In this document: positions 2,083 to 62,100 of the stretch, piece by piece
Layout of the letters: every line of letters starts with the position of its first letter
Numbering within the stretch: the stretch's first letter is position 1
DNA from: Candidatus Omnitrophota bacterium
GTDB taxonomy: Bacteria; Omnitrophota; Gorgyraeia; Duberdicusellales; 4484-171
DNA: 64,000 nucleotides
Reading direction: 5' to 3'
Assembly (NCBI GenBank): GCA_003154195.1
Contig: PMCS01000029.1
Location: 132,547 to 196,546 of the forward strand
The notes under the pieces: generated by a model
Told to the model about the DNA's origin: nothing
Seen by the model: the letters and a program-made list of their open reading frames with translations, nothing else
Databases searched by the model: none
Translations under genes and position numbers: made by a program

Positions 2083-2484
2083 ATAATGAGACTTAGCCGA
2101 ACTAGCATGTACTCATGCTTAGTGAGGCTGTAGTCGAATTACCCAGCACTAATTTTGCCGTAGCAAAATTAGTGCTGGGTTTGAAACTTCGTAAAAAATA
2201 TCGGCACCCGCTTCGCGGATGAAAAACAACAAAAATAACCGAGTATTAAAAAATTTATTCGAGACGCAAAAAAATAACCCCGTCCTGAAAATTTCCAGAA
2301 CGGGGCTGTTTTATCGGGTTGATAAACCGCATTGTATGCATTTAAATTATCCTTGCCGGCCTCGCAGGACCAGCTTAAAGGTTAGTTAGTTTTCCCGACA
2401 AAATACCGCAAGAAAACTAACTAAATATACACTACCAAAGGCTGTATGTCAAGACAAATGAAAAAAAAAATGTTTTTGGTGTAA

Positions 2485-3135
2485 CTATTTATCTAGAAGT
2501 TTTCCCAAGGTCGCAACGGCGACATCGCGGCCGAGCAAATAATGCCATTGGTGAGTGCAACCATCCCAGAGTACCCGAAACCCGCATTTAATAAAAAAAT
2601 CGCGGCCCTGGTCGGAAAAAGTGCTTAAATGGACGCCGTGGATATCGTTGGCTTTTAAATAATCGAAAAATGCCTGCATCAATTTCTCGCCCACGCCGAT
2701 CCGGCGGAAATCTTCCTCGACGTTAATATGCAGGTGCGCGGGATAAAGGGGGGGGATTTTGTAACTATGTTTTTCGGTCAAAAAACTCCGGACGGCATTA
2801 AAAACAAACTTGAGGTTTTTCTTTTTAAAAATATACCCTTTAAAAATAAATTTCGCCAATACCTTGGGGAAAATGGAAGATAAAAATATTTTATTTTTCC
2901 GGTTGGTATCTTTACTGCCGGTCAAATACCCTATTATTTTCCCGCCGCACGCGCAGGCGACAAAAATGGATTGCGGTTCGTAATCGGTATAATATGAGGT
3001 AAAAACGTCCTGTAGTATTTCTCTTCCCTCGAAAAATACCTCAAGTGGTTCGCCCCGGAACGCGGTTTCGGCAAAAATCCGGCGGATTTCCCCCCTGTCC
3101 CAACGCTGATATTTTCTGATTGTGATCTCTTCCAT
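2485..3135 (-). CDS. GNAT family N-acetyltransferase
   Basis: 216 aa; acetyl-CoA binding motif RRIGVGEKLM; followed by hairpin terminators at ~2300-2450. Confidence 0.65.
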   Translation of the reverse strand: MEEITIRKYQRWDRGEIRRIFAETAFRGEPLEVFFEGREILQDVFTSYYTDYEPQSIFVACACGGKIIGYLTGSKDTNRKNKIFLSSIFPKVLAKFIFKGYIFKKKNLKFVFNAVRSFLTEKHSYKIPPLYPAHLHINVEEDFRRIGVGEKLMQAFFDYLKANDIHGVHLSTFSDQGRDFFIKCGFRVLWDGCTHQWHYLLGRDVAVATLGKLLDK

Positions 3136-3301
3136 GGAGAAATTATTTTACTCTTTAACCGGGATTTTGCAATAGAAACAGGGTTATGGCGGGAAAATAA
3201 TATATTATAAAAGGTAAGCGGCTTATGCCGCTTACCTTTGTATATAATAAGGCGCGCCCTCAGCATCTACGTGCCGAGGGCGAAGCCGGAAAAAAACTTT
3301 T

Positions 3302-3769
3302 CTATTCAGTTATATTACCTCGCTTGTTTTCCTGCCGGTGTGTCTTATTTTCCGAATGTTGCTGCTTATGGTGCGCTACCCGTTCGCTCTTTTGTTGCCG
3401 GTGGAATTGGGCATTTTTTTGATGCTGGGTTTTCCGGTGTTGGACATTTTCCTGGTGCTGGGTTTTACGATGCTGGGCAATCGCGGCTCTTTTTTGTCCG
3501 GCCGTCGTATTCGAATTGGCCAGCCCTTGCCTGAATTCCTGATTTTCGTTTTTCTGGGTTCCGCGGAAGTCTTTGTTTTCTTCATGTTGAGCGGCATAGT
3601 GATTGTTTCTCTCCGTTCCTTGCTCCTGGCGAAAATCCTTGTTCTCCTGGCCCTGCGTCTTCCGGTAGCCAGAATTATCGGCCTGGCTGCTGTCCTGGGC
3701 GTAGGCCGGTATGATTATCCCCCAACCTATAAATAGTGCTATTATTAGAAATTTAGTCCAGATGCGCAT
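3302..3769 (-). CDS. secreted low-complexity Q/H/K/N-rich repeat protein (hypothetical)
   Basis: Signal peptide MRIWTKFLIIALFIGWGIIIPAYA; repeated ENKDFRQ / HRKTQHQEN units; RBS GGAGGT 7 nt upstream of ATG; overlapping plus-strand ORFs judged spurious. Confidence 0.5.
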   Translation of the reverse strand: MRIWTKFLIIALFIGWGIIIPAYAQDSSQADNSGYRKTQGQENKDFRQEQGTERNNHYAAQHEENKDFRGTQKNENQEFRQGLANSNTTAGQKRAAIAQHRKTQHQENVQHRKTQHQKNAQFHRQQKSERVAHHKQQHSENKTHRQENKRGNITE

Positions 3770-3775
3770 AACTTA

Positions 3776-3965
3776 CCTCCTTATTTAAGACTCGGTTAGG
3801 ATAAGGGTAACGATGCCGGTATGAGCTATGGTTAAGGTAATGGTTTTATTTTTTAGCCTTAACCCTTACCTTAACCTAAACCGGCCTTCCGCCTTCGCCA
3901 AAGGCTTCGGCGAGACTTCTCCGAAGCTCAAAGAGCGAAGGAGAGCCTAACCCTAGCCTTAACCA
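3776..3965. repeat. GGTTAAGG/CCTTAACC-type ~190-bp intergenic repeat (family 1), copy 1
   Basis: Near-identical in reverse complement to 28868-29062; related copies at 19062-19182, 61603-61731, 62747-62880. Confidence 0.8.
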
Positions 3966-3971
3966 TATTTT

Positions 3972-5040: not shown

Positions 5041-5080
5041 GGCCGCACTATGTAAAAAATATTCGCTCTAACCAAAAAAT

Positions 5081-10589: not shown

Positions 10590-10880
10590 AAATTATAGTA
10601 TCATACCGGTTTCATCGGTCAAGATTTTTATCAAGGATTGACGTAAAAGTCTATAAAGATTATTAAATCTGTAAAGATCATAAAAATTGTAAAAACCACA
10701 TAAAACAAAAAAGCTTAATAAAATCAAAGATGCTTGATTTTATTAAGCTTTTTTGTTAAAAATGGCGGGGACGAAGGGACTCCATCCGTTAAATCAAAAT
10801 AAGCGTTGATTTCATTAGTTTATTTTACGTTTCATCGCTTTGGTGTGTAGTAAATTGGGTAGTAAAATCGATGTAATTTT
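10590..10880. repeat. ~230-bp direct repeat carrying a 17-nt copy of the tRNA-Asp 3' end (10763-10779) plus terminator hairpin; att-like boundary, copy 1
   Basis: Shares AAAAAGCCTAACAAAATCAAAAGATGCTTGATTTT(A/G)TTAGGCTT...AAAAATGGCGGGGACGAAGGGA and ~100 further nt with 13430-13660; left part also shared with the intact tRNA-Asp locus at 15590-15790. Confidence 0.8.
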
Positions 10881-10968
10881 TATTTAGCAGTTAGCAGTAA
10901 TTCTTCGATTTTATAGTATCGCGTACGCGGCGCGTTTTTGCAAGTTTCTTTGCCTACGTATCCTATAA

Positions 10969-13429: not shown

Positions 13430-13660
13430 AAAATTATAAAAATCCTGAAAATTGTAAAGATTATAAATCTAGTGAAAACCCCATAAAAACAAAAAAGCCT
13501 AACAAAATCAAAAGATGCTTGATTTTGTTAGGCTTCTTGCTTAAAAATGGCGGGGACGAAGGGAATCCATCCGTTAAATCGAAATAAGTGTTGATTTTAT
13601 TAGCTTATTTTATCTTTTTTCACTTTGGTGTGTAGTAATTTGGGTAGTAAAATTGATGAA
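13430..13660. repeat. ~230-bp direct repeat with tRNA-Asp 3'-end fragment (13548-13564); att-like boundary, copy 2
   Basis: See 10590-10880. Confidence 0.8.
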
Positions 13661-13721
13661 AATTTTTGGAGTTTTATTGCTATTGCGGTATCCGAAAAAA
13701 ATATTAATTGGAAAGGACGGG

Positions 13722-15369: not shown

Positions 15370-15707
15370 ACTATAACAGCGGAGGTTTTATCCTACATAG
15401 CTGTTACCGCGTTGCCACTTAAAGCCGGGCCTTTTAAGACAGAACGTAGGGAATTGAACCCCTGGTTATCGCCAGGTGGAAGTGCAACTGCAAAACCGTC
15501 GGGAGATTCCAGACGATTGCCGGCATCTTCCAATTATTATTATCCCACGAACATCTGAAAATACAAGAATGCTGCAAGTTCTTTGTGACGTAAAATTATA
15601 CAAACCTTAAAGATTATAAAAGCTGTAAAAATCCTAAAAACCATAAAAACCAAAAAAGCCTAACAAAATCAAAAGATGCTTGATTTTATTAGGCTTTTTG
15701 TTAAAAA

Positions 15708-15786
15708 TGGCGGGGACGAAGGGATTTGAACCCTCGGTCACATGCGTGACAGGCATGGGTCTTGAACCGGGCTAGACGACGTCCCC
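15708..15786 (-). tRNA. tRNA-Asp (anticodon GTC), CCA encoded
   Basis: Cloverleaf readable by eye; anticodon loop CTGTCAC; its 3' 17 nt are duplicated at 10763-10779 and 13548-13564. Confidence 0.75.
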
Positions 15787-16049
15787 ATTTTTTCCTGCGG
15801 CTTTGCCGCAGGAAAAAATCTGTCAATCCGTCTTACGACGGATTGAAATAAAATTATAGCTTCAAATATTGTTTAGTCAACTTATCTTGTAAATTAATAA
15901 AGAACAACGTAATATTTATTTTTATGTTTTTCTGCTTCTAAAATCTATTTCGAAATGGCGGAAGGCATTTTCTCCGCAACTTGAAAAATGCGTAACCGTA
16001 TTTTTCAAGTTGCTATATTTTTTTTCGCTCTTAATAGAGCGAAAAAAAA

Positions 16050-16123
16050 TGGGCAATACAGGACTCGAACCTGTGATCCCTTCCATGTCAAGGAAGTGCT
16101 CTAGCCAACTGAGCCAATTGCCC
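16050..16123 (-). tRNA. tRNA-Val (anticodon GAC)
   Basis: GGGCAATTGGCTCAGTTGG...anticodon loop TTGACAT...GGTTCGAGTCC T-arm. Confidence 0.75.
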
Positions 16124-16338
16124 AAATGAGGCTTAGCCGAGTCCAAGTCCGAAGGACGCCGGACGAGGCTGTAGCCGAATTTGCCCGGCAAATGTTCAAA
16201 AATTGTCGAAGAGAATTTTTGAACGGTTTATGAGCCGGGACGAAAGATATGAAAACATGCCTAATATTTCAATGAGGACTTTCCCGCGTTTTTGACGCGG
16301 GAAAATTATACCATTCTTTTTGCCAAAGGCAAAAAGAA

Positions 16339-19061: not shown

Positions 19062-19182
19062 ACTTGGTAAAGGTTATGGTAATGAAGCCGGTATAAAAAC
19101 TTGGTTAAGGTAAAGGTTTTAAGATTAGTATCAACCTTCGCCTTGCCTTAACCCAAACCGGCATCGTAACCTTAACCTATAT
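19062..19182. repeat. family 1 (GGTTAAGG-type) intergenic repeat, shorter copy between parB and ndk
   Basis: Shares GGTTAAGG...CCGGCATCGTAACCTTAACC ends with other copies. Confidence 0.6.
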
Positions 19183-20010
19183 TTTTATCCTGCTCAAAAC
19201 CCTCTCCAAATCCGAAAGATTAAAATACTCGATGACAATCTTTCCCCGGTTATTCTTTTTGTGGGAAATTTTTACCTTGGTGCCGAGAATTTTTTGCAGT
19301 CTTTCTTCTACTTCTAAAACATGCGGGTCATTGATTTTTTTCTTCCGGGAAACGCTTCTGACTTTTTTTTCTATTTCCCGCACCGGAAGCGGCCCGGCTA
19401 AAATCTGTTGGAATAATTTCTTCTGCTCTTCCTCGTTCGCCAGACCAAGAATTGCCCTTGCCTGGCTTCGACTGATCAGTCCCCGGCTTAACGCCTTCTT
19501 TATTTCTTCCGGAAGCTTCAGCAGCCGGAGCGTATTGGAAATGGTAGTTTTGTCTTTACTGACAAATTTGGCGACCGTATCCAGGGTAAATTCGAATTCC
19601 TCCATTAATCTTTTAAAAGCCTGCGCTTCCTCGATGGCGTTCAAATCCTTGCGCTGCAAATTTTCTATAATGGCAACCGTTAACGCCTCTTTATCGTCAA
19701 TGTCCTTAATAATAACCGGCACCTGCGTTAATTTTAATAATACCGCCGCTTGATAGCGGCGTTCTCCCGCGATAACTTCATATTTATCCTCGGATGCCTT
19801 GCGCACCACTAAGGGTTGGATAACGCCTTTTTCTTTGATGGACTGAGACAATTCCTCCAAGTCTTTTTCATTGAAATCCTGGCGCGGCTGGTATTTACCG
19901 GGTTGCAGTTTTTCTAAAGACAGGTAAGCAAATTCTCTCGGCGTAGCCGGCAGGGTAGCTTTTTTAGGAATGAGCGCGTCTAGTCCTTTACCCAATACTC
20001 TTTTTTCCAT
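19177..20010 (-). CDS. parB: chromosome partitioning protein ParB/Spo0J
   Basis: GERRYQAAVLL ParB box, KGLDALIP N-terminus, HTH region; start set at MEKRV (ORF-track upstream extension begins at TTG inside a repeat element). Confidence 0.85.
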   Translation of the reverse strand: MEKRVLGKGLDALIPKKATLPATPREFAYLSLEKLQPGKYQPRQDFNEKDLEELSQSIKEKGVIQPLVVRKASEDKYEVIAGERRYQAAVLLKLTQVPVIIKDIDDKEALTVAIIENLQRKDLNAIEEAQAFKRLMEEFEFTLDTVAKFVSKDKTTISNTLRLLKLPEEIKKALSRGLISRSQARAILGLANEEEQKKLFQQILAGPLPVREIEKKVRSVSRKKKINDPHVLEVEERLQKILGTKVKISHKKNNRGKIVIEYFNLSDLERVLSRIKI

Positions 20011-20255
20011 AATTTGGATTGCCTTAGTGAATTCCCACCGACTTTGTCGGTGGTTTAGTATAATAAAACTAAGCCCCGCCGTTTCACGGCGGGCCAAGTT
20101 TTATTACCCGGCGCTAATTTTGGTGTACCGAAATTAGCGCCGGGCTAATTCGACTACCACCTCCCACTTCGCCCCCGCCATCCCATAGATGGCGAGGTCT
20201 CGTCAATTCGTTGAACGAATTGAGGGACTTCGGGCTTGTGTTCGGTGAAGTCTCA

Positions 20256-21023
20256 TTAATTAAGCTTAATCGGTTCTTTTAAAATCTCCTGCGCAAGGTT
20301 TAGATATGCTTTAGCGCCCACGCAATATTGGTCATAAAAATGTATAGGCTGGCCAAAGCTCGGCGCTTCCGCGAGCCGGATATTACGCGGGACAATACTG
20401 TTAAAAGCTTTCTCTTTAAAAAATCCGCGCACTTCCTCTATTACCTGAAGACTCAGGCGGGTTCGGAAATCAGCCATCGTCAGCAAGATTCCTTCAATCT
20501 CCAGATCCGGATTAAAACGCTGACGCACCAACTCTATGGTGTTGACTAATTTGGCAACGCCTTCCAGGGCATAATATTCGCACTGAACCGGAATTACCAG
20601 ACTATCGCAAGCGCACAGGACATTCACAGTCAATAAACCCAGGGACGGCGGCGCGTCAATAATCAGGTAAGAAAAGTTATCTTTTATTTTATCAAGTTCT
20701 CTTTTTAATTGCAACTCTCTATTTTCCACATTAACCAATTCGATTTCCGAACCAGTCAACGCAACCGTGGAAGGCATAAGGGAAAAATGCGGCCACTGGG
20801 TAGGATAAATACTTTCCTGTAGCGTCTTGGTGCCGGCAATCACATCGTAAATAGAATTCTTATCCGTATTGTCAAACCCCACCCCGCTAGTCGCATTGCC
20901 TTGCGGGTCCATATCGATAAGAAGTACTTCTTTACCGCTTAAGGCAAGGTAAGAAGCAATATTAATCGCGGTAGTAGTTTTACCAGTACCCCCTTTTTGG
21001 TTACAAACACCGATAATTTTACC
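20256..21023 (-). CDS. parA: chromosome partitioning ATPase ParA/Soj
   Basis: Deviant Walker A KGGTGKTT; start set at MGKIIGV. Confidence 0.85.
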   Translation of the reverse strand, partial: GKIIGVCNQKGGTGKTTTAINIASYLALSGKEVLLIDMDPQGNATSGVGFDNTDKNSIYDVIAGTKTLQESIYPTQWPHFSLMPSTVALTGSEIELVNVENRELQLKRELDKIKDNFSYLIIDAPPSLGLLTVNVLCACDSLVIPVQCEYYALEGVAKLVNTIELVRQRFNPDLEIEGILLTMADFRTRLSLQVIEEVRGFFKEKAFNSIVPRNIRLAEAPSFGQPIHFYDQYCVGAKAYLNLAQEILKEPIKLN

Positions 21024-21115
21024 CATAACGCAAATCACCAGAAATACTGTCATTAATTCATAACTCATTGTGCCGCAATGAGTTATGAATATTTTAATCC
21101 TCTTCTCTATCCCCT

Positions 21116-21131
21116 GTTTTCACGTGAAAAC
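21116..21131. promoter_or_regulatory. parS-like 16-bp perfect palindrome GTTTTCACGTGAAAAC (copy 1)
   Basis: Resembles canonical parS TGTTNCACGTGAAACA around a CACGTG core; 4 copies between parA and yidC. Confidence 0.55.
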
Positions 21132-21283
21132 GGCTGGCTGGTTAGATTACCTTTCGCACAATCCCACGCACCAATAACCAAACTTTGGGGAAAATAGTTC
21201 ATCCCTTGCATAGTTGGAACAGATTACCGGTTCATTTAATTCTAAACGTAACAAGGCAATGGTTAACCAAATAACTCTGCCCC

Positions 21284-21299
21284 GTTTTCACGTGAAAAC
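21284..21299. promoter_or_regulatory. parS-like palindrome (copy 2)
   Basis: Identical 16-mer. Confidence 0.55.
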
Positions 21300-21356
21300 G
21301 TAATTATAGTTTAATACTTAATTTAGTTTTTGCAAGAAATTTCTGCGCCCTGACCA

Positions 21357-21372
21357 GTTTTCACGTGAAAAC
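21357..21372. promoter_or_regulatory. parS-like palindrome (copy 3)
   Basis: Identical 16-mer. Confidence 0.55.
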
Positions 21373-21526
21373 GGAAGCGGTTCCGCGTACGTCAGGTAAA
21401 TATTTTTCGCACGTTTCAAATAGTGGAAAACCTGTGAAAATTGTGATTTCATGCAAATCGGCAACCTGCAGGTGTGGTTTTCTGGTGCATGAATAAACGG
21501 GAAAAATACATTTCCCGGGTTACCGC

Positions 21527-21542
21527 GTTTTCACGTGAAAAC
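21527..21542. promoter_or_regulatory. parS-like palindrome (copy 4), abutting yidC stop
   Basis: Identical 16-mer. Confidence 0.55.
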
Positions 21543-21543
21543 G

Positions 21544-35054: not shown

Positions 35055-35055
35055 A

Positions 35056-41212: not shown

Positions 41213-41273
41213 CTACACTCGTTTTCTGCGCCTTTGGCTTGAAAACGAGTAAGTTTCATTGAGGGAGGTTACT

Positions 41274-43386: not shown

Positions 43387-43515
43387 AGACCTTAAATTTC
43401 ATTTTAAATTGTTCATTGGGCATTGACCATTTTAAATTTTAGAAAATGATAAATGTCCAATGATCAATGATAATTTTAAAATGAATTAATCATCGGTTTT
43501 CGGTCAAAGAAAATA

Positions 43516-51472: not shown

Positions 51473-51477
51473 CCCCG

Positions 51478-52194: not shown

Positions 52195-55100
52195 ATGCTG
52201 ACAAAATTTTCTCCTCCACACCGCGACTTGTTTTTTAAGAGCCTGATATTTTTTCTCGCCTTGGTTTTTTTCACGACCAGCCTGGGCGTCCAATACATCA
52301 TGCCCGGCGCTTACGCGTCCAATCTGATTTTACCCCGGCCCAATCAATTAATCAACACGACGCCTTCGTTCGATCTGCCGTTTTTGCGCGGCTTAAAGAT
52401 TTATCCCGACGAGCCGTTTAAATTCGATTTCATCCTCGATGAGGGCAACGCCGCTTATAACAACAAAGATTTAAAAACCCAATCGAATAGCCTGATTAAA
52501 TATTTTTTAGCCAGCCTTACTATTCCCGAATCCGATTTCTGGGTGAACCTTTCGCCTTACGAAGGCGACCGCATCGCGCCGGAAGAATTGAGCCGGACTG
52601 ATCTCGGCCAGGATTTGCTGGCGCAGGATTATCTCCTCAAACAATTGGTCGCTTCGCTTACCTATCCTGATTCGCCGCTGGGAAAACAATTCTGGTCCAA
52701 GGTATACCAGCGCGCCTACGAGCTGTTCGGAACGACTAAAATCCCGCTCAACACGTTTAATAAAATCTGGATTGTGCCGGATAAAGTCACGATTTACGAG
52801 GATGAGGGCAAAGCAATCATCGGCGACGCGAAATTAAAAGTGATGCTGGAAGAGGATTATCTTTCCTTGAAAGAAAATATTTCCAACCCCCAATTCAAGA
52901 CCGATACCATCGCTAACGATAAAGCCGAAGATATCAACTCGTTTTCTTCCCGGATTATGAAAGAAGTGGTGGTGCCGGTGATTGAAAACGAAGTCAATAC
53001 CGGCAAGAACTTCGCTCCGTTAAGGCAGGTCTATTACTCGCTGATTCTGGCTACCTGGTTTAAACTAAAATTGAAGCAGACGGTTGTGGCGCAGATTTAC
53101 GCCGATAAGAAAAAAACCAACAGCGTTAACAGCGACGACCCGGCAATGAAAGAAAAAATCTACCGCCGGTATTTAGAAGCATTCCAGAAAGGGATTTATA
53201 ACTACGTCAAGCGGGATTTGGATTTAGGCACCAAGCGCTATGTCCGGCGCCGCTATTTCAGCGGCGGAGCGGATATGAGAACGGCGACCGCGACGGTTTC
53301 TTCCGGTTTGGTACCATTCGCCAAGATTATTTCTTCGCCGGCGGCTACGGCGGCGTCTAATGGCCACCTGAGAAGTGTGGAGACGGAATTAAAGGCCGGC
53401 ACTATTGGCAATCCGATTGAGAATACGGCGCCTAAACCTCTTTCTCGAAAACCCAATAATATTTTGGAACGAAGCTTTGTGGTGTTGAAAAATCTGAGAT
53501 TCAGCCAGCTCGCCGGGGATAATCATAAAGTAAAACGTCTTTTTTCCCAGGTTCGGCTGGCCGGAAACATCTTAATCGATACGGAGCATAAATTATTTCC
53601 CCATCAGAATACGGCAGAGTTTAAAAATGCGGTGTTCAAAAATTTGCTCGACCAGAATTGGGCCGCGCTGCACAACCAAAGCCCGGGGCGGGCGCTTTTG
53701 GCTAACCCCCTCTTTGTCGCCGCAATGGCCTACTGTGCTTACACCCTCGACGATGCCGCCGGTAATAGAGAATACCAGAATAAACTTGACCGATACCTAT
53801 CGGTCTTAAACTTAGGTCCCCGCCAAATCGAAGCGATAAAAACAACCGCGCGTAATCAAGTAGTCAAAGCAGAGCAAGAACGAGTTAAAAAAACGATAGG
53901 GCAAGGGCGGCTTTCGCTGCCTGCTAAACCAGCAAATAGTAAGGGAGAAATGCGTGTCGCTGTTGGTTCGTCCGCCTTATCTAAAGCTCCCGTCTCCGCC
54001 TCGCCGCTGCCGTCCATAGTTGACTCCAAGCCGTCGCTATTTAAGCGGGTCGCCGATGCAATTGTCGCGGCTGCCCCTCCCAAGGTGACGGGCCGGGCGT
54101 GGGAAAGTTCCGGTACGGCTAATCTCGCTGTAGCGGTTGACGGCTATACAATCCAGGCCAGGGTTGACGTAGATAATAAAACCGGTGAACCTTTAGTCTC
54201 GGCCGGCCGGATACATGATATCGCCAAGGAAGTGCTTTATATGACCAGTACGGATTCCCAAGCCATTTCCGCCGGAGCCCTTCCCGCGACAATTACCATA
54301 AGAGTAGCACCAGTAAAAGACAGTATTTTCCCGGTTCAGCATACACCCGGGGTGATTACGATTAACCGGGCAATCGTAGAGCGGATTCGCAACCCCCGTT
54401 TGCGCGAAATATTTATCGAGGCCAGCATATTCCACGGTTTGTCCCGGGAATTAGGGGTAGATGCCCAAACCCTGGCGCGAACAGATGCCGCTTGTTTAAT
54501 AGGATTGGCCAAGTCCCAACACGAATCGAGCGAGGTTAATATTTCCCGGGCCGAGCTGGAAACGAATTTACGCCGCATCAGCCGGATTAATAAAAGCGCG
54601 GCGGCTGATGCGCTTTTATTCAGCGCGCTAAAAGGTTATCCCGTAAATACAATTGATATGGACCCAAAAATGGGGCCGGGAAGCATGGCCGATTATCAAA
54701 AGGCGCTAAGGGGACACGCCGCTAATTTTAGAAGCTTGCTGCGCACTGGACAGAGCGCAGATAAAAGCGCAAAAATTAATGAGGCTTTAAAAAGATTTGG
54801 GGAATTTTGCCGGCTGAAAGAATTATGGTCTCGTAACTCTTTTAGCCCTGAAGAGGCCACATTGGTAGAGGCGGTTGAACAAGAGCGTCAAAAAGCATGG
54901 AAAGCAATCGAGAAAGAGTTTAACGACCAGGGCTATCATGTTTATGGTAAATTTATGGATTCGGGGAGAAAAGAAGATAGGCTTTTTGTTCTTCAGCATA
55001 TCGAAGAAAGAAGGGCTTTGCCGGAAGACTTTGGCCGTCAGGAAGTCTGGTTTGTCCGGCAGGAAACTGAGTTGCCCGGAGGCCGGGTCCCCGGCGGCGC

Positions 55101-58100
55101 GGGGTTTACCGAATTATTTTCCGGCGACGGAAGTGCCATCAGGGTTGACCGCAGCAGCATTGAACGAACCGATGATCAGCTAATTGCGCCGTATCGTGAA
55201 ACGCGAGGAGCACATGTTTCCGAGGTTGATGACAGGTTAGGCGCTTTTGCCGTTTCCTATGGGCAATTAGCGCACGTTTACGCCCAGACCGGCCAGGTTC
55301 AGCGTTTACAAGACCAGGAAGAGGAAGTATTTTTTCGTGAAGCGCTGCAGTCTATTTTGGAACGCGGTATCGGTAAAGATAATCTAGACAAACTGCGAGG
55401 AAAAAACCTGAGGGATGGCGAGGATGATTTTAAACGGCTGCAGCGCCTGGGAGAAAAATTGGTACATTTAGCGACAATGGAAAAATCCGGCAATCCCCTT
55501 GCGGTTTTTTTGGCGGAGATACGCCGAGGTTTTGACCAGAGGATAATCATAGATGACAATGGGGAGATAGACCGCGTCCCCAGCGAAGCAATCCTGACCG
55601 CTTTGGCGCAACAAGCATCTGGGCAAGATAGCGTGGCCGGCACCGAAGCCGGCAAAACAATGTGTCGTGATTGGTTTTCTTTTTTGGCGGAATCGCAATC
55701 TTCGCAAGAAGAATATAATCATCGGCTGACTAGCCTTATCACACAAGAGCTTGGACAGGTACGCCAAGCCTTTATCGCGGAATGTAGTAAGCATGATTTT
55801 TCCTCGAGATGGGAAATCGTTTTTGACCAGTTTATGGCAACCCCCACGGCAAATTTGCTTAACGTTGCCTCATCCGCCTTAACTAAAGCTCCTGCCGTTG
55901 CCTCACCAGTGCGCGCGTGGTTAACTAAGCGGTCTGCTTCGGTCAGAGCGAAGCTTACTTCCTTTGGAGTCCGGCTCGGCGATACGCGGGATTCATTAAG
56001 CCGGCGGCTCGCTCCGTTCAGGCTCAGGCTCGGCGCCGCGCGGGATTCGGCGAGCCGGCGGATTACTTCGTTTCGAGCCCGGCTTGCTTCCCTGAGGACT
56101 TCCCTGAAAAGCGGGTTCGTCAGCGCGCGGGATTATGCAAGCAACCGGGTTACTTCCGCAAGCAACAAATTGACCGGTCTAACACTTAGAGCTTACATCG
56201 CGCAGGATTCAACGCGCCGGCAGATTAATGCGTTTGGAGAAAGGGTTGCTTCCCGGTCCCGGGCAAAGTTCGTTTCCCTTGGAAAAAGGCTTGCTTCCCG
56301 ATCTCGGGAAAAATTCACTTCTCTTAGGTTAAAGATTCAAGGTGAGCCTGCCGCGCAAGGTAATCCAAGACGACTTAAACAACTCCAAGCTTTAAGCATG
56401 TGGAGCCTGAATACAGCTGTACATGCTGCCGCCAAAAAAGCAGAATTTGACCCGGACGAACAATTACCCATTGCCATGGGGGTTTTTTTCATTGGGTGGG
56501 TTTTAACACATCCCGAGCAGGCTTTAAAAACGTTGTTCTCTAAAAGAATAGAGCCGGGCACCGCGCGGGATTCCGTGAGCGGACGGGTTGCTTCCATCAG
56601 GGAAACATTGGCTTCTCTAAAAGCTGGAATCGGATCATTGTTTAGTCTAATCCTTGTGGATATGGGGTCGGCCATTGTTGGCAATCCAACCAGAGCAGGG
56701 GTAAATAATGACGTAGGTGCACCAGTAGGCGAACTGAGCATGCTTGCCGCAGAGACTTCCAGCGAGGTTTCTTCCGCGGTGGTGGAGGCCAAAGGGTTAG
56801 AATCTACCCCGATATTTGGAACTAATAATGTCGCTGTCATCGCCTCGCCGGTTTTGGCTTCTTCCGCGGCCGGGGAAGTCAGGGAAATAGAAATTAAAAC
56901 TTTATTTTCTCCTAATACCAGTGATGGCACAGCCGCTTTATCATTAGAAAATATAGCTGATATGTGGAAGAGAGAGTCTCAGAGAGGTTTACCACTGAGA
57001 TTCCGTTTAAACGGGGCAAGCCTGATGGGAAATACCACGGAATTATTATTAACCCGCGCCAAGCAGGCGTCCCAGAGGAAAGAGTTACGGCCCTTGGTCA
57101 GGATTATTTTAAGAGTGGCAGCGCGGAAAGACCCACAATTATTATTATTCCGCGCTATTCAAGCGCATAATGAGAAGTCCGATCCTTTCGCAAGGCTGAT
57201 TCTGGAAGCGGTGGCGCAGGAAGACAAAGGATTATTGTTATCACGCGCTATTCAGGCTCATGACGAAAAAACCGATCCTTTAGCCAGGCTGATCTTGGAA
57301 GTGGCAGCGCAGAAGGACCCGCAATTATTGCTTACCCGCGCCAAAGACGCATCCCGGGATGGTTTTTTCCCTTTGGCGATACTTATTCTTGAGGTGTTAA
57401 AGGACAAAAACCAGGATGAACCAGATTATCCTTATCACGCGGCTTACGCGTATTGGCATCGAGACGCCCCAAGTGGTCGCATAGAAAAAATAGATTTTCT
57501 CCAAAACGCGCAGAAAAATTTCAGAATCGCCGGGAGACTTTACAGGAAACTTTATGAGAGTGAGAGGTCAGGTAAGAATGAGCACAAGGTTCAATTGGGT
57601 CATTGCGCGGGAGAATTTAAAAATATACAAAAAGATATAGACAGAATTAAAAGCCAGTTGATGGAAAGTGAGTCTGAAGAATCTGAACAATGGGTGATGA
57701 TGAAAGATGCTTACGAAGATTTAATTTGGACGGAGAATATCAGTAAGGAACATACGCCGGGTAGAGTTGTTAGTGAAGCAATGGTGGGCCAGCTTCAAGA
57801 TCTTTTGGCAGCGTTGGATCGTTCGACATTACAACCAGTTATTATCGCGTTCGCGGCAACCTTTAATTTATTACCCGAAAATGCTAGTGATGGTACCCAA
57901 ATGTTTGACGAAAAACATATAAAAGCCATAGAAGATTCAATCGCAGACCCTAAGTCGAGTTGGGAAACGCTTAGTAGAAAATACCAAGTGGGTGGTTTAT
58001 CTACGAGGCATAATGGCGTCGCCGAAGAAGCTTTTGAAAGAATAAAAGAAACGATTGTTAAGGCTAGAAAATCCGCTTTGAGTATAGAATCCGGGGCATT

Positions 58101-59619
58101 GCAAGATGATGGCGAAGCCCTTTTAAGCGGCAGCTTCGGCAGAGATAATGGGGCTGGCAGCCTGGATTCCGCGATTGACGATTTGTTTGGTTCCGGCGGA
58201 ATTTTTGGCGGCGATGAAGCAATAACTCCCGCGCAGGAACCCGATTCCCTTGTTGTCCTTCCTCTTGCCGACGGCCAAACATCTTCGAACGCGGCGAATC
58301 ACCGGGAAATAATGCTGACGTGGGAGAAACAACGCAGGCAAGCCTCCGCTTCGCCGGCTTTGGCCTCGTCCACCGCCTTGCCGGTAGAAAGTATTGTCGA
58401 TTCTTTAAAGCGTATATTCGTGAATGGACACGCCGCGATACACGGGGAAAATATAGGCCAATCGTTGGCCTCTGCTTTCAGGGCTTCTCTCGACGCCGCC
58501 ACATTTAATAGCTTTGTACCAATGGCGGTGGCGTGGGGTACGTCTTTTATTGCCTCCTTGGTATCAGTAAGACAACAACGCAGATTTGATTCTTGGGTAT
58601 CTGAAATAGAACGAAGCAGAGAAGCGGTAAGCAATGTCCCCGATGTTGGGCATGAGTTAAGCCTGGATGATATCACAATTATCGGCGGTCATTCTACTTC
58701 TGAAAGCACCAGTGTGGAACAAGGCGTCGCCGCCTCGCCGGCGCCGGTAATGCATTTATTTGAAAATTCTTCAATAAAAGTCGAATTGGAAATATCCGCC
58801 GGGAATGTTGATGTATTGCAAGGACTTGCCGAGGCTGTTTCTATCGGATATAAGGAGGCATTATTTAGAGAAAACGGCGGCTTGATTGTCGGCCGCCTTG
58901 AAGGCAATGTGTATACTGTTACCGGGTTAATTCCTCTTGTCCGTTCGATAAGGACCGACGCTTCTATCACGTTCGATAAAGAAGAGATTAGAGAAAGGAT
59001 CGAAGGCTTGCTCCCGAATGTAATGGTATTGGGGTTGTACCATAACCATGGTTATCATCGTTCTTTTTCTGCTAACTATAAGCCTGGCCCCAGCCAAGAC
59101 GATGCCATTATCGATGATTTGAACATTGAAGAATTAAAACATCGGATTGTTGCTAATCGATTAGGTTTAATCGTGGAAGCAGCCCCGCAGTTATCATTCG
59201 AGGCTTTAGTGGCAAGCGAAGGTGAGCCAGTGAAGCCGTCGATGAGCGATGTAGGAGTATACGGTTATATTACTCCTAATCGTGGTGAAGATGGCAAGAT
59301 AAGACAACCAATTAATGAAAATGGCGTACCCATCGATGCAATAAACCGATTTTTCGCGGATAATAGAAAAAAGCCGGGAACCGTTTCTTCTCCCTCGGGT
59401 ATTAAAACCCCCGGCGGTATCGATTTGGGCGGGGATAAGATGAAAATGCAGATAATCGACCAAAGACCAAAGACCGTAGACCAAAGACAAGAAATACAGG
59501 GGGCGGCGAGCGCCATGGCGATAAAAGGATTGCCGTTTGATATCAACAAATTCGAGGGGTTTACTTTTAATATCATCAAGATCGAGAAGGTGAAAAGTCT
59601 GGCGGCGATGCTTAAGTGA
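52195..59619 (+). CDS. giant (2474 aa) secreted/surface repeat-containing protein, function unknown
   Basis: Uninterrupted 7.4-kb ORF; N-terminal signal peptide/TM; Arg/Ser amphipathic ~19-aa repeats (aa ~1250-1390); three ~38-aa LLLxRAIQAHxEKxDPxARLILE repeats (aa ~1620-1730); higher GC than surroundings; only short antisense ORFs inside. Confidence 0.7.
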   Translation: MLTKFSPPHRDLFFKSLIFFLALVFFTTSLGVQYIMPGAYASNLILPRPNQLINTTPSFDLPFLRGLKIYPDEPFKFDFILDEGNAAYNNKDLKTQSNSLIKYFLASLTIPESDFWVNLSPYEGDRIAPEELSRTDLGQDLLAQDYLLKQLVASLTYPDSPLGKQFWSKVYQRAYELFGTTKIPLNTFNKIWIVPDKVTIYEDEGKAIIGDAKLKVMLEEDYLSLKENISNPQFKTDTIANDKAEDINSFSSRIMKEVVVPVIENEVNTGKNFAPLRQVYYSLILATWFKLKLKQTVVAQIYADKKKTNSVNSDDPAMKEKIYRRYLEAFQKGIYNYVKRDLDLGTKRYVRRRYFSGGADMRTATATVSSGLVPFAKIISSPAATAASNGHLRSVETELKAGTIGNPIENTAPKPLSRKPNNILERSFVVLKNLRFSQLAGDNHKVKRLFSQVRLAGNILIDTEHKLFPHQNTAEFKNAVFKNLLDQNWAALHNQSPGRALLANPLFVAAMAYCAYTLDDAAGNREYQNKLDRYLSVLNLGPRQIEAIKTTARNQVVKAEQERVKKTIGQGRLSLPAKPANSKGEMRVAVGSSALSKAPVSASPLPSIVDSKPSLFKRVADAIVAAAPPKVTGRAWESSGTANLAVAVDGYTIQARVDVDNKTGEPLVSAGRIHDIAKEVLYMTSTDSQAISAGALPATITIRVAPVKDSIFPVQHTPGVITINRAIVERIRNPRLREIFIEASIFHGLSRELGVDAQTLARTDAACLIGLAKSQHESSEVNISRAELETNLRRISRINKSAAADALLFSALKGYPVNTIDMDPKMGPGSMADYQKALRGHAANFRSLLRTGQSADKSAKINEALKRFGEFCRLKELWSRNSFSPEEATLVEAVEQERQKAWKAIEKEFNDQGYHVYGKFMDSGRKEDRLFVLQHIEERRALPEDFGRQEVWFVRQETELPGGRVPGGAGFTELFSGDGSAIRVDRSSIERTDDQLIAPYRETRGAHVSEVDDRLGAFAVSYGQLAHVYAQTGQVQRLQDQEEEVFFREALQSILERGIGKDNLDKLRGKNLRDGEDDFKRLQRLGEKLVHLATMEKSGNPLAVFLAEIRRGFDQRIIIDDNGEIDRVPSEAILTALAQQASGQDSVAGTEAGKTMCRDWFSFLAESQSSQEEYNHRLTSLITQELGQVRQAFIAECSKHDFSSRWEIVFDQFMATPTANLLNVASSALTKAPAVASPVRAWLTKRSASVRAKLTSFGVRLGDTRDSLSRRLAPFRLRLGAARDSASRRITSFRARLASLRTSLKSGFVSARDYASNRVTSASNKLTGLTLRAYIAQDSTRRQINAFGERVASRSRAKFVSLGKRLASRSREKFTSLRLKIQGEPAAQGNPRRLKQLQALSMWSLNTAVHAAAKKAEFDPDEQLPIAMGVFFIGWVLTHPEQALKTLFSKRIEPGTARDSVSGRVASIRETLASLKAGIGSLFSLILVDMGSAIVGNPTRAGVNNDVGAPVGELSMLAAETSSEVSSAVVEAKGLESTPIFGTNNVAVIASPVLASSAAGEVREIEIKTLFSPNTSDGTAALSLENIADMWKRESQRGLPLRFRLNGASLMGNTTELLLTRAKQASQRKELRPLVRIILRVAARKDPQLLLFRAIQAHNEKSDPFARLILEAVAQEDKGLLLSRAIQAHDEKTDPLARLILEVAAQKDPQLLLTRAKDASRDGFFPLAILILEVLKDKNQDEPDYPYHAAYAYWHRDAPSGRIEKIDFLQNAQKNFRIAGRLYRKLYESERSGKNEHKVQLGHCAGEFKNIQKDIDRIKSQLMESESEESEQWVMMKDAYEDLIWTENISKEHTPGRVVSEAMVGQLQDLLAALDRSTLQPVIIAFAATFNLLPENASDGTQMFDEKHIKAIEDSIADPKSSWETLSRKYQVGGLSTRHNGVAEEAFERIKETIVKARKSALSIESGALQDDGEALLSGSFGRDNGAGSLDSAIDDLFGSGGIFGGDEAITPAQEPDSLVVLPLADGQTSSNAANHREIMLTWEKQRRQASASPALASSTALPVESIVDSLKRIFVNGHAAIHGENIGQSLASAFRASLDAATFNSFVPMAVAWGTSFIASLVSVRQQRRFDSWVSEIERSREAVSNVPDVGHELSLDDITIIGGHSTSESTSVEQGVAASPAPVMHLFENSSIKVELEISAGNVDVLQGLAEAVSIGYKEALFRENGGLIVGRLEGNVYTVTGLIPLVRSIRTDASITFDKEEIRERIEGLLPNVMVLGLYHNHGYHRSFSANYKPGPSQDDAIIDDLNIEELKHRIVANRLGLIVEAAPQLSFEALVASEGEPVKPSMSDVGVYGYITPNRGEDGKIRQPINENGVPIDAINRFFADNRKKPGTVSSPSGIKTPGGIDLGGDKMKMQIIDQRPKTVDQRQEIQGAASAMAIKGLPFDINKFEGFTFNIIKIEKVKSLAAMLK

Positions 59620-59793
59620 GAGTAGAAAGAAGACCGTAGGACGTGGGACGTTCGCGGCAGTAGCCGCTGGGACGTAGGACGAAAAAGACCAATCGTTTTT
59701 CTTGTTTTTTCCAGACTTCTAAACTTTCTGGAACATTCCTTCCCCCATAATTTCCTTGTTTTTCGCCTAACTTATGGTAAATTAATTATTCCT

Positions 59794-60789
59794 ATGATTA
59801 AAGAAATTGCTACGCCAAAATTAAAAAATCCCGTATGCATCGCCGCCTGGCCGGGGATGGGTGAAGTCGCCTACCGTGCCGCGATTTTTTTAAAAGAAGT
59901 CATGGGGTTTAAAATGTTCGCCAAGCTGGAAGCGGCGGAGTTTTTTAAACCCGCGGCGGTGTTTGTGGAAAAGGGCATTGTCAGCCTGCCTTCGATGCCG
60001 GCGGGATTCTTCTATTACCTCAAGGGAAAACATTTTCCCGATATCATCCTGTTTATCGGCGAAGCCCAGCCGCCCCTGGAATACGCCGAAGACCTCTCTT
60101 ATTCTCTGGTAAATTTCCTGAAAAAATATAAGACCAAATTTATCTTTACCTTTGCTGCCAAGCCGGAGTCGATCGACCATAAGGGTGATTCTTTGGTCTG
60201 GATGGCGGGGACGCATCCGGAAGTCCTCAAAGACTTCGAAAAATTTCATTTAAAGATTTTAAGCGAAGGCCAGATCAGCGGCCTTAACGGGATTATTCTG
60301 GGCGCCGCTAAAAGTAAAGGCATCAAGGGGACCTGCCTTTTGGGCGAGATACCTTTTTACACGGTACAGATAGAAAACCCCAAGGCTACCCACAGTATTC
60401 TTAAGATTATGAACGAGTATCTCCAGCTTAATCTGAATCTCGCGCCCTTGCAGGAAAGAGTAAAATTTATCGAACAGGAAATCGATAAACTGATCGATTA
60501 TTTAAAAGGAGAGGGCGATGGCGCCCAGCATCCTTCTGTCCCCAGCAGCGGCCCGTTGCCGTTAAGCGAAGACGATATCGAAAAAATCAAAAAAGACTTG
60601 GCCGGTTACAGCAAATTACCCCAGTCGGCGCGGGAAACCATTGAGGTGCTGTTTAAGGACGCGCAGAAAGATATCGCCAAAGCCAACCAATTAAAAGGAG
60701 AGCTTGACCGCTGGAACGCCTACAAGGAATACGAAGACCGCTTCCTCGATTTATTCAAGAAGAAAGACAAGCGCGACGAGACCCATTAA
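59794..60789 (+). CDS. PAC2-family (proteasome-assembly-chaperone-like) protein
   Basis: NPVCIAAWPGMGEVA N-terminal signature; family 2 repeat begins right after its stop. Confidence 0.55.
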   Translation: MIKEIATPKLKNPVCIAAWPGMGEVAYRAAIFLKEVMGFKMFAKLEAAEFFKPAAVFVEKGIVSLPSMPAGFFYYLKGKHFPDIILFIGEAQPPLEYAEDLSYSLVNFLKKYKTKFIFTFAAKPESIDHKGDSLVWMAGTHPEVLKDFEKFHLKILSEGQISGLNGIILGAAKSKGIKGTCLLGEIPFYTVQIENPKATHSILKIMNEYLQLNLNLAPLQERVKFIEQEIDKLIDYLKGEGDGAQHPSVPSSGPLPLSEDDIEKIKKDLAGYSKLPQSARETIEVLFKDAQKDIAKANQLKGELDRWNAYKEYEDRFLDLFKKKDKRDETH

Positions 60790-60931
60790 TGAGACTTAGA
60801 TTTTCTCAAGCGCGAAGAGCGCAGAGAAAATCTGTAGTCGAATTAACCCCGTGGAGTGCGATGAAAATATGCGAAGCAGATTTTCGTCGCGGGTAACGAA
60901 GCGGGGCAGTAAATTTGATTATTGGGTGCCC

Positions 60932-61603
60932 ATGCCTTCCCGGAAATATTTAACCGTCACCCAGATACGCAAACTTGAAGAAAAAGCGAAATGCCTCGGT
61001 TTAAGCGAACGTCTGCTTATCGAAAACGCTTCCAGTAACCTTGCCCAGATCATCGATTCCCTGAATTTAGGAAAAAATTTTTTAGCCGTTGCCGGGAAGG
61101 GGAATAACGGCGCCGATACCCTCGCTTGCGCCCGAAAATTGGCCGCTAAGGGATATGCCGCGTGCGCGGTAATCCTCGCCCATGATTCTGTAGCCTTGAG
61201 TGAAGAAGTTATTTTCCAGAAGAATATTTTAGAAAGAATCGCGCCGGTCGATTTAGTGAACGAAAGCAATTTGGCGCGATTATCCCAGGCGTTAAAGACG
61301 AGCGATTTTTTAATTGACGGCATCTTCGGCATCGGATTAAGCGGGCCAATCTCTTCCTTTTTCCTCAGCGCGATCGATTTAATCAACCGGAGCAAAAAAC
61401 CCGTTGTCGCCTGCGATATCCCCTCCGGGTTGCATCCGGATACGGGGGAAATCCTCGGCGGGGCAATAAAAGCCAAATATACCATAACATTTATCGCCCC
61501 TAAGCGGGCATTTTTTTTACCCCCGGCAAAAAAATTCTGTGGTAAAATATTGATGGCGGATATAGGGATACCTTTGTTGAAAATACGCCAAAGAAACCGG
61601 TAA
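60932..61603 (+). CDS. NAD(P)H-hydrate epimerase (YjeF N-terminal domain)
   Basis: AVAGKGNNGADTLACAR...DGIFGIGL motifs; overlapping minus-strand 259-aa ORF judged spurious. Confidence 0.7.
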   Translation: MPSRKYLTVTQIRKLEEKAKCLGLSERLLIENASSNLAQIIDSLNLGKNFLAVAGKGNNGADTLACARKLAAKGYAACAVILAHDSVALSEEVIFQKNILERIAPVDLVNESNLARLSQALKTSDFLIDGIFGIGLSGPISSFFLSAIDLINRSKKPVVACDIPSGLHPDTGEILGGAIKAKYTITFIAPKRAFFLPPAKKFCGKILMADIGIPLLKIRQRNR

Positions 61604-61731
61604 TAATCGGTTAGGGCTAAGGCCAGGAAGCCGGTTTGGGCTAAGGCAACGGTTAAGGCTGGTACGAATTTACAGCCATAACCTTTACCATAACCCATAC
61701 AGGCATCGTTACCCTAACCCAGTTTTAAATT
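61603..61731. repeat. family 1 (GGTTAAGG-type) repeat ending at an ATG
   Basis: ...GGCATCGTTACCCTAACCCAGTTTTAAATTATG; the same terminal 30 nt precede the ATG at 62881. Confidence 0.75.
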
Positions 61732-61902
61732 ATGACCAAACTCGAATTGATCATCGCTTGGGTTGCCGGCACGATTATGGCGGTAGGGTGGTTTTTATTT
61801 TACTATCCGATGTCTAGTGCCGGATATATTTTTAAATACGTGACGCCCTCCGCCATATTTTTTGCTTTAGGGTTTGTTACGTTAACCAGAAAATTTAAGT
61901 AA
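61732..61902 (+). CDS. 56-aa two-TM small membrane protein (hypothetical)
   Basis: Not in ORF track; ATG supplied at the end of the family 1 repeat. Confidence 0.35.
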   Translation: MTKLELIIAWVAGTIMAVGWFLFYYPMSSAGYIFKYVTPSAIFFALGFVTLTRKFK

Positions 61903-62100
61903 TAAGTATCAGGCCCCTTCGCGTTGCTCAGGGCAATGAAACTCGGCTCGCCGAATACGGCGGGGCTTAGTTTCATTGATTCGACCATCGCTTCGTCCGG
62001 CGCCCGCTTCGACTCGCGTCGAGCGAGGCGAGCGCTTTGCGCTTGATAATTCAACTAAGCCCGGGGCACCGGGCAAGTTTCATTACAGTGAAGTTTCATT

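Follow-up and report, generated by a model that had tools for sequence, protein, structure and literature searches.

The window analysed here, a 64,000-nt stretch of contig PMCS01000029.1 from a Candidatus Omnitrophota bacterium, spans a replication origin region. It carries parAB, yidC, dnaA (23654), dnaN, and gyrBA, with a GC-skew minimum at ~21 kb; near this minimum and dnaA, between parA and the yidC-like gene, a parS-like palindrome, GTTTTCACGTGAAAAC, occurs four times (21107-21546). The window's DnaA is 100% identical to metagenome proteins and 67-78% identical to the other proteins listed, the named ones of which come from Candidatus Omnitrophota/Omnitrophica. The Omnitrophota are an uncultured, widespread phylum of small cells, some of whose members are predatory. 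Between the genes lie copies of a short repeat, whose core module we call H1. An initial annotation, made from the letters of the window, had described it as a modular intergenic family with conserved ends and a variable middle. The repeat is real: it covaries, is strand specific, multi-copy, and mosaic, occurs across phyla, and matches no catalogued family.

Both conserved ends are enriched in the window. We found 11 matches to AATGAGACTT (at most one mismatch), compared with 3.8 expected, and 10 matches to GTAGTCGAATT, compared with 1.2 expected; no shuffle equalled either count. The two motifs occur as ordered pairs at the sites named in the initial annotation, and its modular intergenic family is upheld by these pairs, by their enrichment, and by the matches of a covariance model at the same sites. 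The sites were correct, but the true unit is 2 nt longer on each side.

Folding revealed that the two ends base-pair with each other, as [TY]AAT–GA–GACT(T)…(G)T–AGTC–GA–ATT[RA]. The core module is a single long hairpin of ~45-65 nt (typically ~60 nt) with fixed ends AATGA…GAATT. At its base is a 5-bp helix ([TY]AAT / ATT[RA]), in which AAT pairs with ATT in 37/37 aligned copies. Above it are a symmetric 2x2 tandem G·A mismatch in the context T-GA-G / C-GA-A (Y-GA-R), a GACT/AGTC helix of 4-5 bp that is able to covary, and a conserved T·G pair, kept in 35/37 copies, plus one bulged T. The upper stem of ~10 bp (inner ~9-10 bp) is variable in sequence yet always paired, T-rich on its 5′ side, A-rich on its 3′ side, and AT-rich at its centre; the loop is variable, and the upper part often has an internal loop, AA/GCA, together with a small GC hairpin that ends in a GAA loop. 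The spacing between the arms ranges from 16 to 110 nt. Thus, the conserved ends stand, but the "30-80 variable nt" of the initial annotation are not unstructured, since the middle is a perfect stem and the ends pair. Read from the sequence, the arms TCAATGAGACTT and GTAGTCGAATTGA show no internal dyad symmetry. The motif GTAG is present, but 3′ of the hairpin; within it, G is paired with T12, T bulges out, and AG opens the AGTC strand.

We built a covariance model, R1, from 37 non-identical H1 copies. R1 recovered copies in the window at significant scores, with seven full matches (34-71 bits, E 3e-7 to 4e-18), while the complementary strand at these sites scored only 11-17 bits. The window also holds one copy with a branched insert and two to three variants without G·A, and the density of H1 is ~1 copy per 7 kb. 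The compensatory changes that the initial annotation had proposed to look for are plentiful. In the 37-copy alignment, standard pairs make up 95.4% of cells; column shuffles give 78.5% and slid controls 35-49%. Of the 20 pairs, 14 changed on both sides (127 cells). The variable part of 101 unique exact-end copies has a mean of 7.9 consecutive base pairs counted from the outside, compared with 0.67 when shuffled. The clamp helix covaries among 131 model matches (GAGGCT/AGCCGA, GAAACT/AGTTGA, GAGCAC/GTGCGA, and GAGCGC/GCGCGA), and AATGA…GAATT is invariant in all these variants. Positions -1/+1 also covary (C-G in 57 copies, T-A in 28), and the two flanking nucleotides are inverted complements (TC…GA, TT…AA, CA…TG), so the helix extends outward. 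In one subfamily, represented at 20062-20105 and 37830-37875, the G·A mismatch positions have turned Watson-Crick (AATAAAACTT…TTAGTTTTATT).

Within two nucleotides, most H1 copies are followed by a second hairpin, H2, which shares the helix–GA…GA–helix plan. GA…GA interrupts the basal helix of H2, YCCNG…CNGGR, and encloses a GCGAAGC mini-hairpin in some cases and a long AT-rich hairpin in others; this plan is found in 43/122 unique flanks, compared with 5/122 shuffled flanks. Within single genomes, H1 marks the left terminus of bigger repeated mosaics, which measure ~190 nt in the Omnitrophota metagenome-assembled genome (MAG) RS_9_43 (unit ends AATCAA…TTGATT) and >400 nt in a termite-gut Oscillospiraceae MAG. 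Copies inside one genome form near-identical families with defined unit ends. We also observed tandem arrays of H1-containing units (locus L003, 1480-1808; L098, 50-206; L046, 941-1130), some units of which lack the 5′ arm; this suggests unequal recombination between copies.

The leftmost copy in the window (2083-2142, plus strand; R1 53.2 bits, E 9e-13, and fold) lies antisense in the pyrR 5′ untranslated region (UTR), 2 nt from the pyrR ATG (2082). It sits between pyrR and a riboswitch-like PyrR-binding leader (2270-2385, minus strand; 52.2 bits, just below the Rfam gathering score of 54), and the element now separates the two. Immediately past it is a perfect 17-bp hairpin (CCCAGCACTAATTTTGC…GCAAAATTAGTGCTGGG; 2142-2179, plus strand; sequence and fold). 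The second copy (16123-16183, plus strand; 58.4 bits and fold), inside a tRNA cluster, has a compensated A-T to G-C change in its 4-bp helix (GAGGCT/AGCCGA), and on its left it adjoins tRNA-Val (16049-16124, minus strand) at the 5′ end of the tRNA. It is followed by an H2 (16184-16239, plus strand; fold) with the basal helix GCCCGGC/GCCGGG around a long AT-rich hairpin and GA on the 3′ side.

Between parA and parB, an H1 with both ends exact and an 89-nt branched insert (20145-20259, minus strand; sequence) begins within the parA stop codon (TAA, 20258-20256), and ParA is ~8 codons shorter than in relatives. It is joined by a perfect hairpin module (GCCCGGCGCTAATTT…AAATTAGCGCCGGGT; 20106-20146, minus strand; sequence) and a variant without G·A (AATAAAACTT–hairpin–TTAGTTTTATT, 20062-20105), which with its tail occupies 20035-20105 (minus strand; 15.2 bits). 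The tail hairpin CCACCGAC…GTCGGTGG (20035-20053) lies upstream of the parB ATG (20010). The initial annotation had called 20041-20255 composite, as it is: exact-end copy with branched insert, perfect hairpin, G·A-less variant, and small hairpin. It was also right that the parB open reading frame (ORF) is falsely extended: the TTG-started ORF at 19177-20097 begins inside the composite, and parB itself starts at the ATG at 20010. The perfect hairpin that was said often to follow the repeat exists at 2142-2179 and 20106-20146 (14-18 bp), but these hairpins are separate modules.

Another antisense H1 (35904-35964, minus strand; 66.5 bits) is flush with the ribosome-binding site (RBS, AAGGAGG) of a tRNA_bind gene (35975-36301). 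With an adjoining H2 (35846-35901, minus strand; sequence and fold), it nearly spans the gap from the stop codon of a TP_methylase gene (35838) to the next RBS (35846-35964). The supposed partial copy at 37840-37910 is a G·A-less variant (AATAAAACTT…TTAGTTTTATT, 37830-37875) that with its tail covers 37830-37900 (plus strand; the same subfamily as 20035-20105) and begins in the stop codon of the ORF at 36454-37830. Two copies flank lrp (41274-41756). One is antisense and flush with the lrp RBS (41204-41262, minus strand; 69.5 bits); the other is sense and overlaps the lrp stop TAA at 41754-41756 (41754-41814, plus strand; 65.5 bits). A long hairpin module (AACCCCGCCCTTTTGGC…GCCAAAAGGGCGGGGT; 41094-41203, minus strand; sequence) forms the outer part of the left flanking block, and an inverted copy of it lies to the right (41815-41925, plus strand; sequence). 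The gene is thus bracketed by inverted ~170-bp blocks of H1 plus long hairpin (41094-41262 and 41754-41925).

The highest-scoring copy (60786-60846, plus strand; 71 bits, E 4e-18) is sense and overlaps the stop codon of a PAC2-family gene (59794-60789). Its H2 (CCCCG…GA…CGGGG round an AT-rich hairpin with a GCGAAGC apex; 60847-60906, plus strand; sequence and fold) ends 27 nt before the YjeF_N start (60933). At the right end of the window, the initial annotation had placed a variant copy at 61905-62100. R1 identified a short H1 variant at 62046-62086 (minus strand; 34.5 bits, E 3e-7), AATGAAACTT-GCCCGGTGCCCCGGGC-TTAGTTGAATT, in which a G-C to A-T change is compensated, but 62091-62100 (minus strand; sequence) is only an orphan 5′ arm, AATGAAACTT, flush with the ATG (62101) of an MBL-fold gene. 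A perfect-arm variant hairpin (CAATGAAACT…AGTTTCATTG, 61935-61979), together with an H2-like GCCCTGAGCAACGCGAAGGGGC, lies at 61913-61979 (minus strand; weak R1 match).

As these copies illustrate, the AATGAG end is located at gene boundaries. An opposite-strand gene starts directly to its left in 43/129 copies; in 16 copies, the RBS complement CTCC ends 2 nt from it, and several have the ATG at a distance of 0-4 nt. A same-strand gene ends at it in ~30 copies, using stop codons that the element supplies at offsets 0-2 (TAA), 5 (TGA in AATGA), and 12 (TAG of CTTAG). Copies are flush with stop codons, RBSs, start codons, and one tRNA 5′ end. In the window, the end AAGTCTCATT abuts the pyrR ATG (2 nt), the RBSs of the tRNA-binding-domain gene and lrp, and the MBL-fold ATG (0 nt), just as first described; pyrR (2080-2085) and the MBL-fold gene (62098-62103) start at these distances from the hairpin without a Shine-Dalgarno sequence. 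The most economical explanation is insertion of composites into very short stop-to-RBS spacers, which they filled completely. We ruled out the RBS as part of the element, because CTCC is in the flank of only 26/127 copies and spacer filling explains the flush position more simply. Insertions would be tolerated only if the stop-rich end faced the incoming reading frame. The element truncates gene ends, supplies stops, and replaces 5′ UTRs up to the start codon, and the false ORF extensions that arise from it, as in parB, matter for correct MAG annotation.

Orthologous junctions in relatives lack the element. In three syntenic relatives (L111, L113, and L114; Lrp identity 73-74%), the lrp–aminotransferase spacer is 18-73 nt, shortest in L114 at 18 nt, compared with 478 nt in the window; the Lrp C terminus (…ITY*) is intact in the window and in the relatives, and the element begins inside the stop codon. 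Likewise, the parA–parB junction is empty in L192-L194 (0-74 nt, compared with 245 nt in the window). Across 1.05 Mb of other loci, these syntenic relatives among them, R1 matched one copy only, and weakly. Because these orthologous sites are empty, the copies are lineage-specific insertions in short spacers between housekeeping genes, not ancient conserved sites; the empty sites have diverged too far to be reconstructed base by base. Nine contigs from different samples show the copies to be fixed within the species. Near lrp, an HNH_2 endonuclease gene (40514-40966) and a 52-aa Cys-rich hydrophobic small ORF (42080-42238) are present in the window and absent from L111 and L114.

To follow the repeat beyond the window, we scanned one genome per GTDB species (596 Gb) with an exact bipartite pattern, for which ~8 chance matches were expected. 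Exact ends were found in at least 106 loci, and most of the matches listed were in Omnitrophota or "Planctomycetia"-labelled MAGs. The other listed matches were in an Oscillospiraceae MAG (>20 contigs), two "Clostridia" cold-seep MAGs, and Anaerovibrio and Selenomonas rumen MAGs, as well as Stahlbacteria, Bacteroidota, Syntrophaceae, Babeliaceae, and one Methanosarcinales MAG. Matches in Salipaludibacillus (L049), Chryseobacterium (L066), and Helcococcus (L102) have no hairpin and were set aside as chance, which fits the ~8 expected. R1 identified 131 copies in 0.64 Mb of pattern-selected loci; the family thus has the copies elsewhere without which the initial annotation would have fallen. PLSDB plasmids and INPHARED phages contained no copies, nor did IMG/VR when searched with the exact pattern. 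A looser pattern gave 37 loci with only one marginal covariance model match; these we treated as chance. The two contigs of the Methanosarcinales MAG (JAIWAR01; L026 and L085) carry typical Omnitrophota-type H1 and H2 beside bacterial-style RBSs; this is probably Omnitrophota DNA that was mis-binned. Such mis-binning would be plausible, as some Omnitrophota are reported to associate with methanogens or to prey on them.

The signature of H1 is confined to one strand. The G·A pairs are always on the same strand, H1 apices contain CGAAG 25 times and CTTCG once, and GCGAAGC is found downstream 17 times, compared with twice for its complement. As RNA, the forward strand folds 4.4 kcal/mol better than the complement, and it is the better folder in 125/130 copies. 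Of the 63 copies that lie between codirectional genes, 36 run antisense to transcription and 27 run with it; in the window, five are antisense and three sense. The placement of H1 relative to transcription is random. Because the signature is on one strand only, yet indifferent to transcription, we infer that the hairpin acts as single-stranded DNA (ssDNA). This combination would be expected of elements handled as ssDNA, such as REP (repetitive extragenic palindromic) sequences and REPINs with their REP-associated tyrosine transposase (RAYT), the ends of IS200/IS605 insertion sequences (IS), and attC sites. In DNA, tandem G·A pairs of the sheared type are favoured by the Y-GA-R context, and the GCGAAGC mini-hairpin is very stable.

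The same random orientation weakens the idea that H1 is a functional cis-acting RNA, such as a processing, stability, or "punctuation" signal or a site for a protein that reads the G·A clamp, with a conserved ligand. We consider this idea, the main rival to the interpretation we favour, unlikely, although it keeps some weight because a clamp so exact across phyla is unusual for selfish repeats. The strong covariation, the conserved G·U pair and tandem G·A, the GAA/GNRA-like loops on the forward strand, and the greater stability of the forward RNA are all what such an RNA would show. The clamp is invariant across phyla, all window copies lie within transcription units (the pyrR leader, the tRNA cluster, and parA–parB), and the hairpin is flush with stops and with start codons that lack a Shine-Dalgarno sequence. 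However, with 36/63 codirectional-gene copies antisense (5/8 in the window), the structured strand is untranscribed in more than half of the cases. The element is also absent at the orthologous junctions of relatives and has no tie to any gene class. No Rfam 15 family matched the copies at gathering thresholds, nor did any when the whole window was searched at E<=5; the sole overlaps, with RUF1 (23.5 bits, gathering 70) and Hrs1 (24.8 bits, gathering 56.4), were rejected as weak chance matches. By eye, we found no fit to hammerhead, twister, pistol, or hairpin-ribozyme cores, sarcin-ricin/loop E, the tRNA T-arm, or C/D-box K-turns: there is no CUGAUGA…GAAA and no 3-nt bulge. A kink-turn is excluded, as the G·A pairs are in a symmetric 2x2 loop between regular helices and not next to a three-nucleotide bulge. 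ARAGORN made no tRNA-like call at the copies. In the literature, the motifs appeared in no relevant context, and nothing was apparent on interspersed repeats in Omnitrophota.

Could the ends instead be read as double-stranded DNA? As 7/9 positions pair between AATGAGACT and AGTCGAATT, the ends are imperfect terminal inverted repeats, and H1 could be a classical MITE (a miniature transposable element with inverted repeats), with AATGAGACT… / …AGTCGAATT recognised by a DDE transposase encoded elsewhere and the hairpin incidental. The repeat is short, multi-copy, lineage-restricted, and intergenic, and unit ends are defined inside a genome, as with AATCAA…TTGATT in RS_9_43. Nevertheless, we judge a MITE of this kind improbable. 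No direct target-site duplication was seen, and the flanks covary as inverted complements; a TA or TTAA duplication was ruled out because the TCAA…TTGA and CA…TG flanks are inverted repeats. The interior does not drift but is kept perfectly paired by compensatory changes; at the "mismatched" repeat positions one strand invariably has G·A, and loop sequence is strand specific as well. Moreover, no DDE transposase was found in the copy-bearing loci.

The search for a mobilising enzyme was also negative for other classes. The initial annotation had suggested a cognate transposase or TnpB, but none was found in the window or in the copy-bearing loci. All-against-all clustering of 1143 ORFs from 106 loci gave housekeeping families only. 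Pfam searches of genes beside copy clusters identified BioY, patatin, SurA, ClpB, rhomboid, ExbBD, YjeF_N, and Fpg, with no mobility gene. An IS200 TnpA probe had no match over ~2 Mb of DNA. A 2.2-kb segment between convergent copies in L043 proved to be an Mla-type operon and not a transposon; from ORF translations read by eye, it encodes an MlaD/MlaE/MlaF-like ABC transporter and a STAS-like protein.

A role as a host-selected DNA site, for gyrase or nucleoid-protein binding or as a cruciform, or as a non-canonical terminator is highly improbable. The extragenic mosaics of hairpin modules do resemble bacterial interspersed mosaic elements (BIMEs), for which sites of this sort have been proposed, and the AT-rich stem centre and the frequency of the copies would suit such a site. 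Nonetheless, copy density differs hugely between close relatives, which argues against a housekeeping role. Copies also lie between co-transcribed genes, directly before RBSs, where termination would be harmful, and the sequence 3′ of the hairpin in window copies, GTAGTCGAATT[RA]YCC, has no U-tract. For the latter reason, and as the stem is AT-rich, an intrinsic terminator is excluded; a promoter is excluded because the arm spacing varies too widely.

The interpretation we favour, to which we give about an even chance, is that H1 is a non-coding, non-autonomous REPIN/MITE-like mobile hairpin repeat that acts as ssDNA and is passively co-transcribed. In such a scheme, a trans-acting structure-specific enzyme would act on the ssDNA hairpin during copying or mobilisation, in the manner of HUH/Y1 transposases. 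Only lineages that kept the clamp and the paired stem would multiply further; by the argument made for REPINs, all copies may be perfectly paired despite their differing stems because propagation needs both. Co-transcription with operons would be a passive consequence, with probable side effects on mRNA stability and translation.

Several observations weigh against this interpretation. No transposase, RAYT, or TnpB was found in the window, beside copies, or beside copy clusters (0.69 Mb of loci). There is no presence/absence polymorphism between strains at lrp, where the differences among nine contigs amount to 0 or 1 nt over 888-911 nt; therefore, ongoing mobility is not demonstrated. No target-site duplication was seen: the flanking dinucleotides are inverted, not direct, and the RS_9_43 unit ends show none. 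Unlike IS200/IS605 elements, the copies show no replication-orientation bias round the origin (lagging-strand template for 5/10 copies and variants). The cross-phylum assignments depend on MAG binning, and for REP-type elements, normally confined to single lineages, it is unusual that a 21-nt clamp is kept exactly across phyla; this conservation could point to a conserved cellular ligand.

More tentatively, H1 and H2 may form a previously unrecognised superfamily of hairpin modules, clamped by a basal helix and tandem sheared G·A pairs, that is read by a dedicated cross-phylum protein, either a new structure-specific ssDNA transposase or recombinase or a factor for RNA-processing "punctuation" of Omnitrophota operons; we regard this as possible, if doubtful. 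The punctuation version requires that both orientations be processed. The element offers a handle for finding the mobilising enzyme and for studying how hairpin repeats spread between phyla, in a genome whose intergenic space it has reshaped.

The window contains other repeats. A ~200-nt block occurs three times (10636-10881, 13437-13666, and 15590-15732; spaced 2785 and 2160 bp), and in each, units like "TAAAGATTATAAA" recur with a 9-nt period, alongside a hairpin and a duplicate of the tRNA-Asp 3′ end (gene at 15708-15786, minus strand). They bracket low-GC cassettes with methyltransferase genes, C_GCAxxG_C_C, Nitro_FeMo-Co, DUF134, NYN, and Band_7; the first block has SNase-OB and NTase/HEPN genes just upstream. 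There is no integrase, and the arrangement resembles a cassette array or tandem integration at tRNA-Asp. A separate long-hairpin family rich in GGTTAAGG/CCTTAACC (28874-29052, 61597-61720, and 62740-62864, also 19129-19179 and 3813-3845) is placed directly after gene ends (gyrB-like, YjeF_N, MBL). A further intergenic family (…AATGATAATTGTTCAATGATCAATGTTCAATTTAAAATGA…) has inverted sub-units (35052-35163, 36317-36426, and 43393-43491). AT-only hairpins (TTTTATTTTTTACGAAGTAAAAAATAAAA) lie beside tRNA genes and gene ends at 16426, 17734, 31516, and 31832; the organism may use them as terminators. A 2474-aa ORF (52195-59619) with no Pfam match contains internal repeats of ~93 nt (57091-57341) and ~54-87 nt (55973-56594). 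The gyrB of one relative (GCA_028713415.1; L191, 5973-9635; 1220 aa) carries an intein with an Intein_splicing domain; gyrB in the window (794 aa) and in other relatives has none.

How does H1 compare with known systems? Phage T7-type intercistronic RNase III hairpins are ~22-bp irregular hairpins with a conserved internal loop that lie between cistrons, and H1 resembles them in these respects. It differs in that half of its copies are antisense to the transcript and in being mobile and multi-copy across genomes. Like attC sites, H1 has end boxes that pair around a variable structured centre, one functional strand, and a position after or overlapping the stop of the preceding ORF. However, its ends are AATGAGACTT…GTAGTCGAATT and not RYYYAAC / GTTRRRY, its orientations are mixed, no integrase is nearby, and the flanking genes are syntenic housekeeping genes rather than cassettes.

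Short mosaic repeats and MITEs, such as Correia/NEMIS, RUP, BOX, ERIC, and BIME, share with H1 a short, intergenic, multi-copy, and modular nature, co-transcription with neighbours, the ability to supply stops or alter UTRs, and lineage-specific bursts. In contrast to them, H1 has no related IS, its interior is constrained to pair, it carries a strand-specific non-Watson-Crick signature, and it spans phyla. Of the two hallmarks of DDE-type MITEs, H1 has the terminal inverted repeats but shows no direct target-site duplication. The ends of IS200/IS605 elements and palindrome-associated transposable elements (PATEs) are likewise strand-specific, subterminal, irregular hairpins recognised as ssDNA; they make no target duplication, and a minimal element has two hairpins, as with H1 plus H2. 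Here, however, the two hairpins differ in sequence, the copies lack the lagging-strand bias, the window and loci contain no tnpA or tnpB, and there is no fixed target tetranucleotide beyond T at -2.

The closest parallels are with REPs and REPINs. REPs are stem-loops of 20-40 bp, and H1 is likewise an extragenic stem-loop at high copy number (~8 in 64 kb); like REPs and REPINs, it lies between codirectional genes, occurs in clusters and mosaics, and is non-autonomous. In the REPs of E. coli and P. putida, a tag precedes the stem-loop. Some REP families contain G·T pairs, unpaired GA, and a GTAG motif (PMC3733652), all of which H1 shares. However, the GTAG tag of REPs is terminal and unpaired (PMC3733652), whereas that of H1 is largely base-paired and 3′ of the hairpin. 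REPINs consist of two conserved inverted regions and a less conserved spacer that is kept paired by compensatory changes (PMC3116915), and H1 has the same two inverted regions with a compensated paired spacer. Its conserved arms are, however, not themselves REP palindromes, no RAYT, a gene typically flanked by the repeats, was found in the DNA scanned, and its clamp is nucleotide-identical across phyla, while REPs co-evolve with their RAYT and are lineage-specific. H1 would thus appear to work like a REPIN, but we file it outside that family because it fails the defining features of REPs, DDE-type MITEs, IS200/IS605 derivatives, and attC sites. Among bacterial hairpin repeats and miniature mobile elements, it most likely represents a small mobile hairpin repeat of a new kind.

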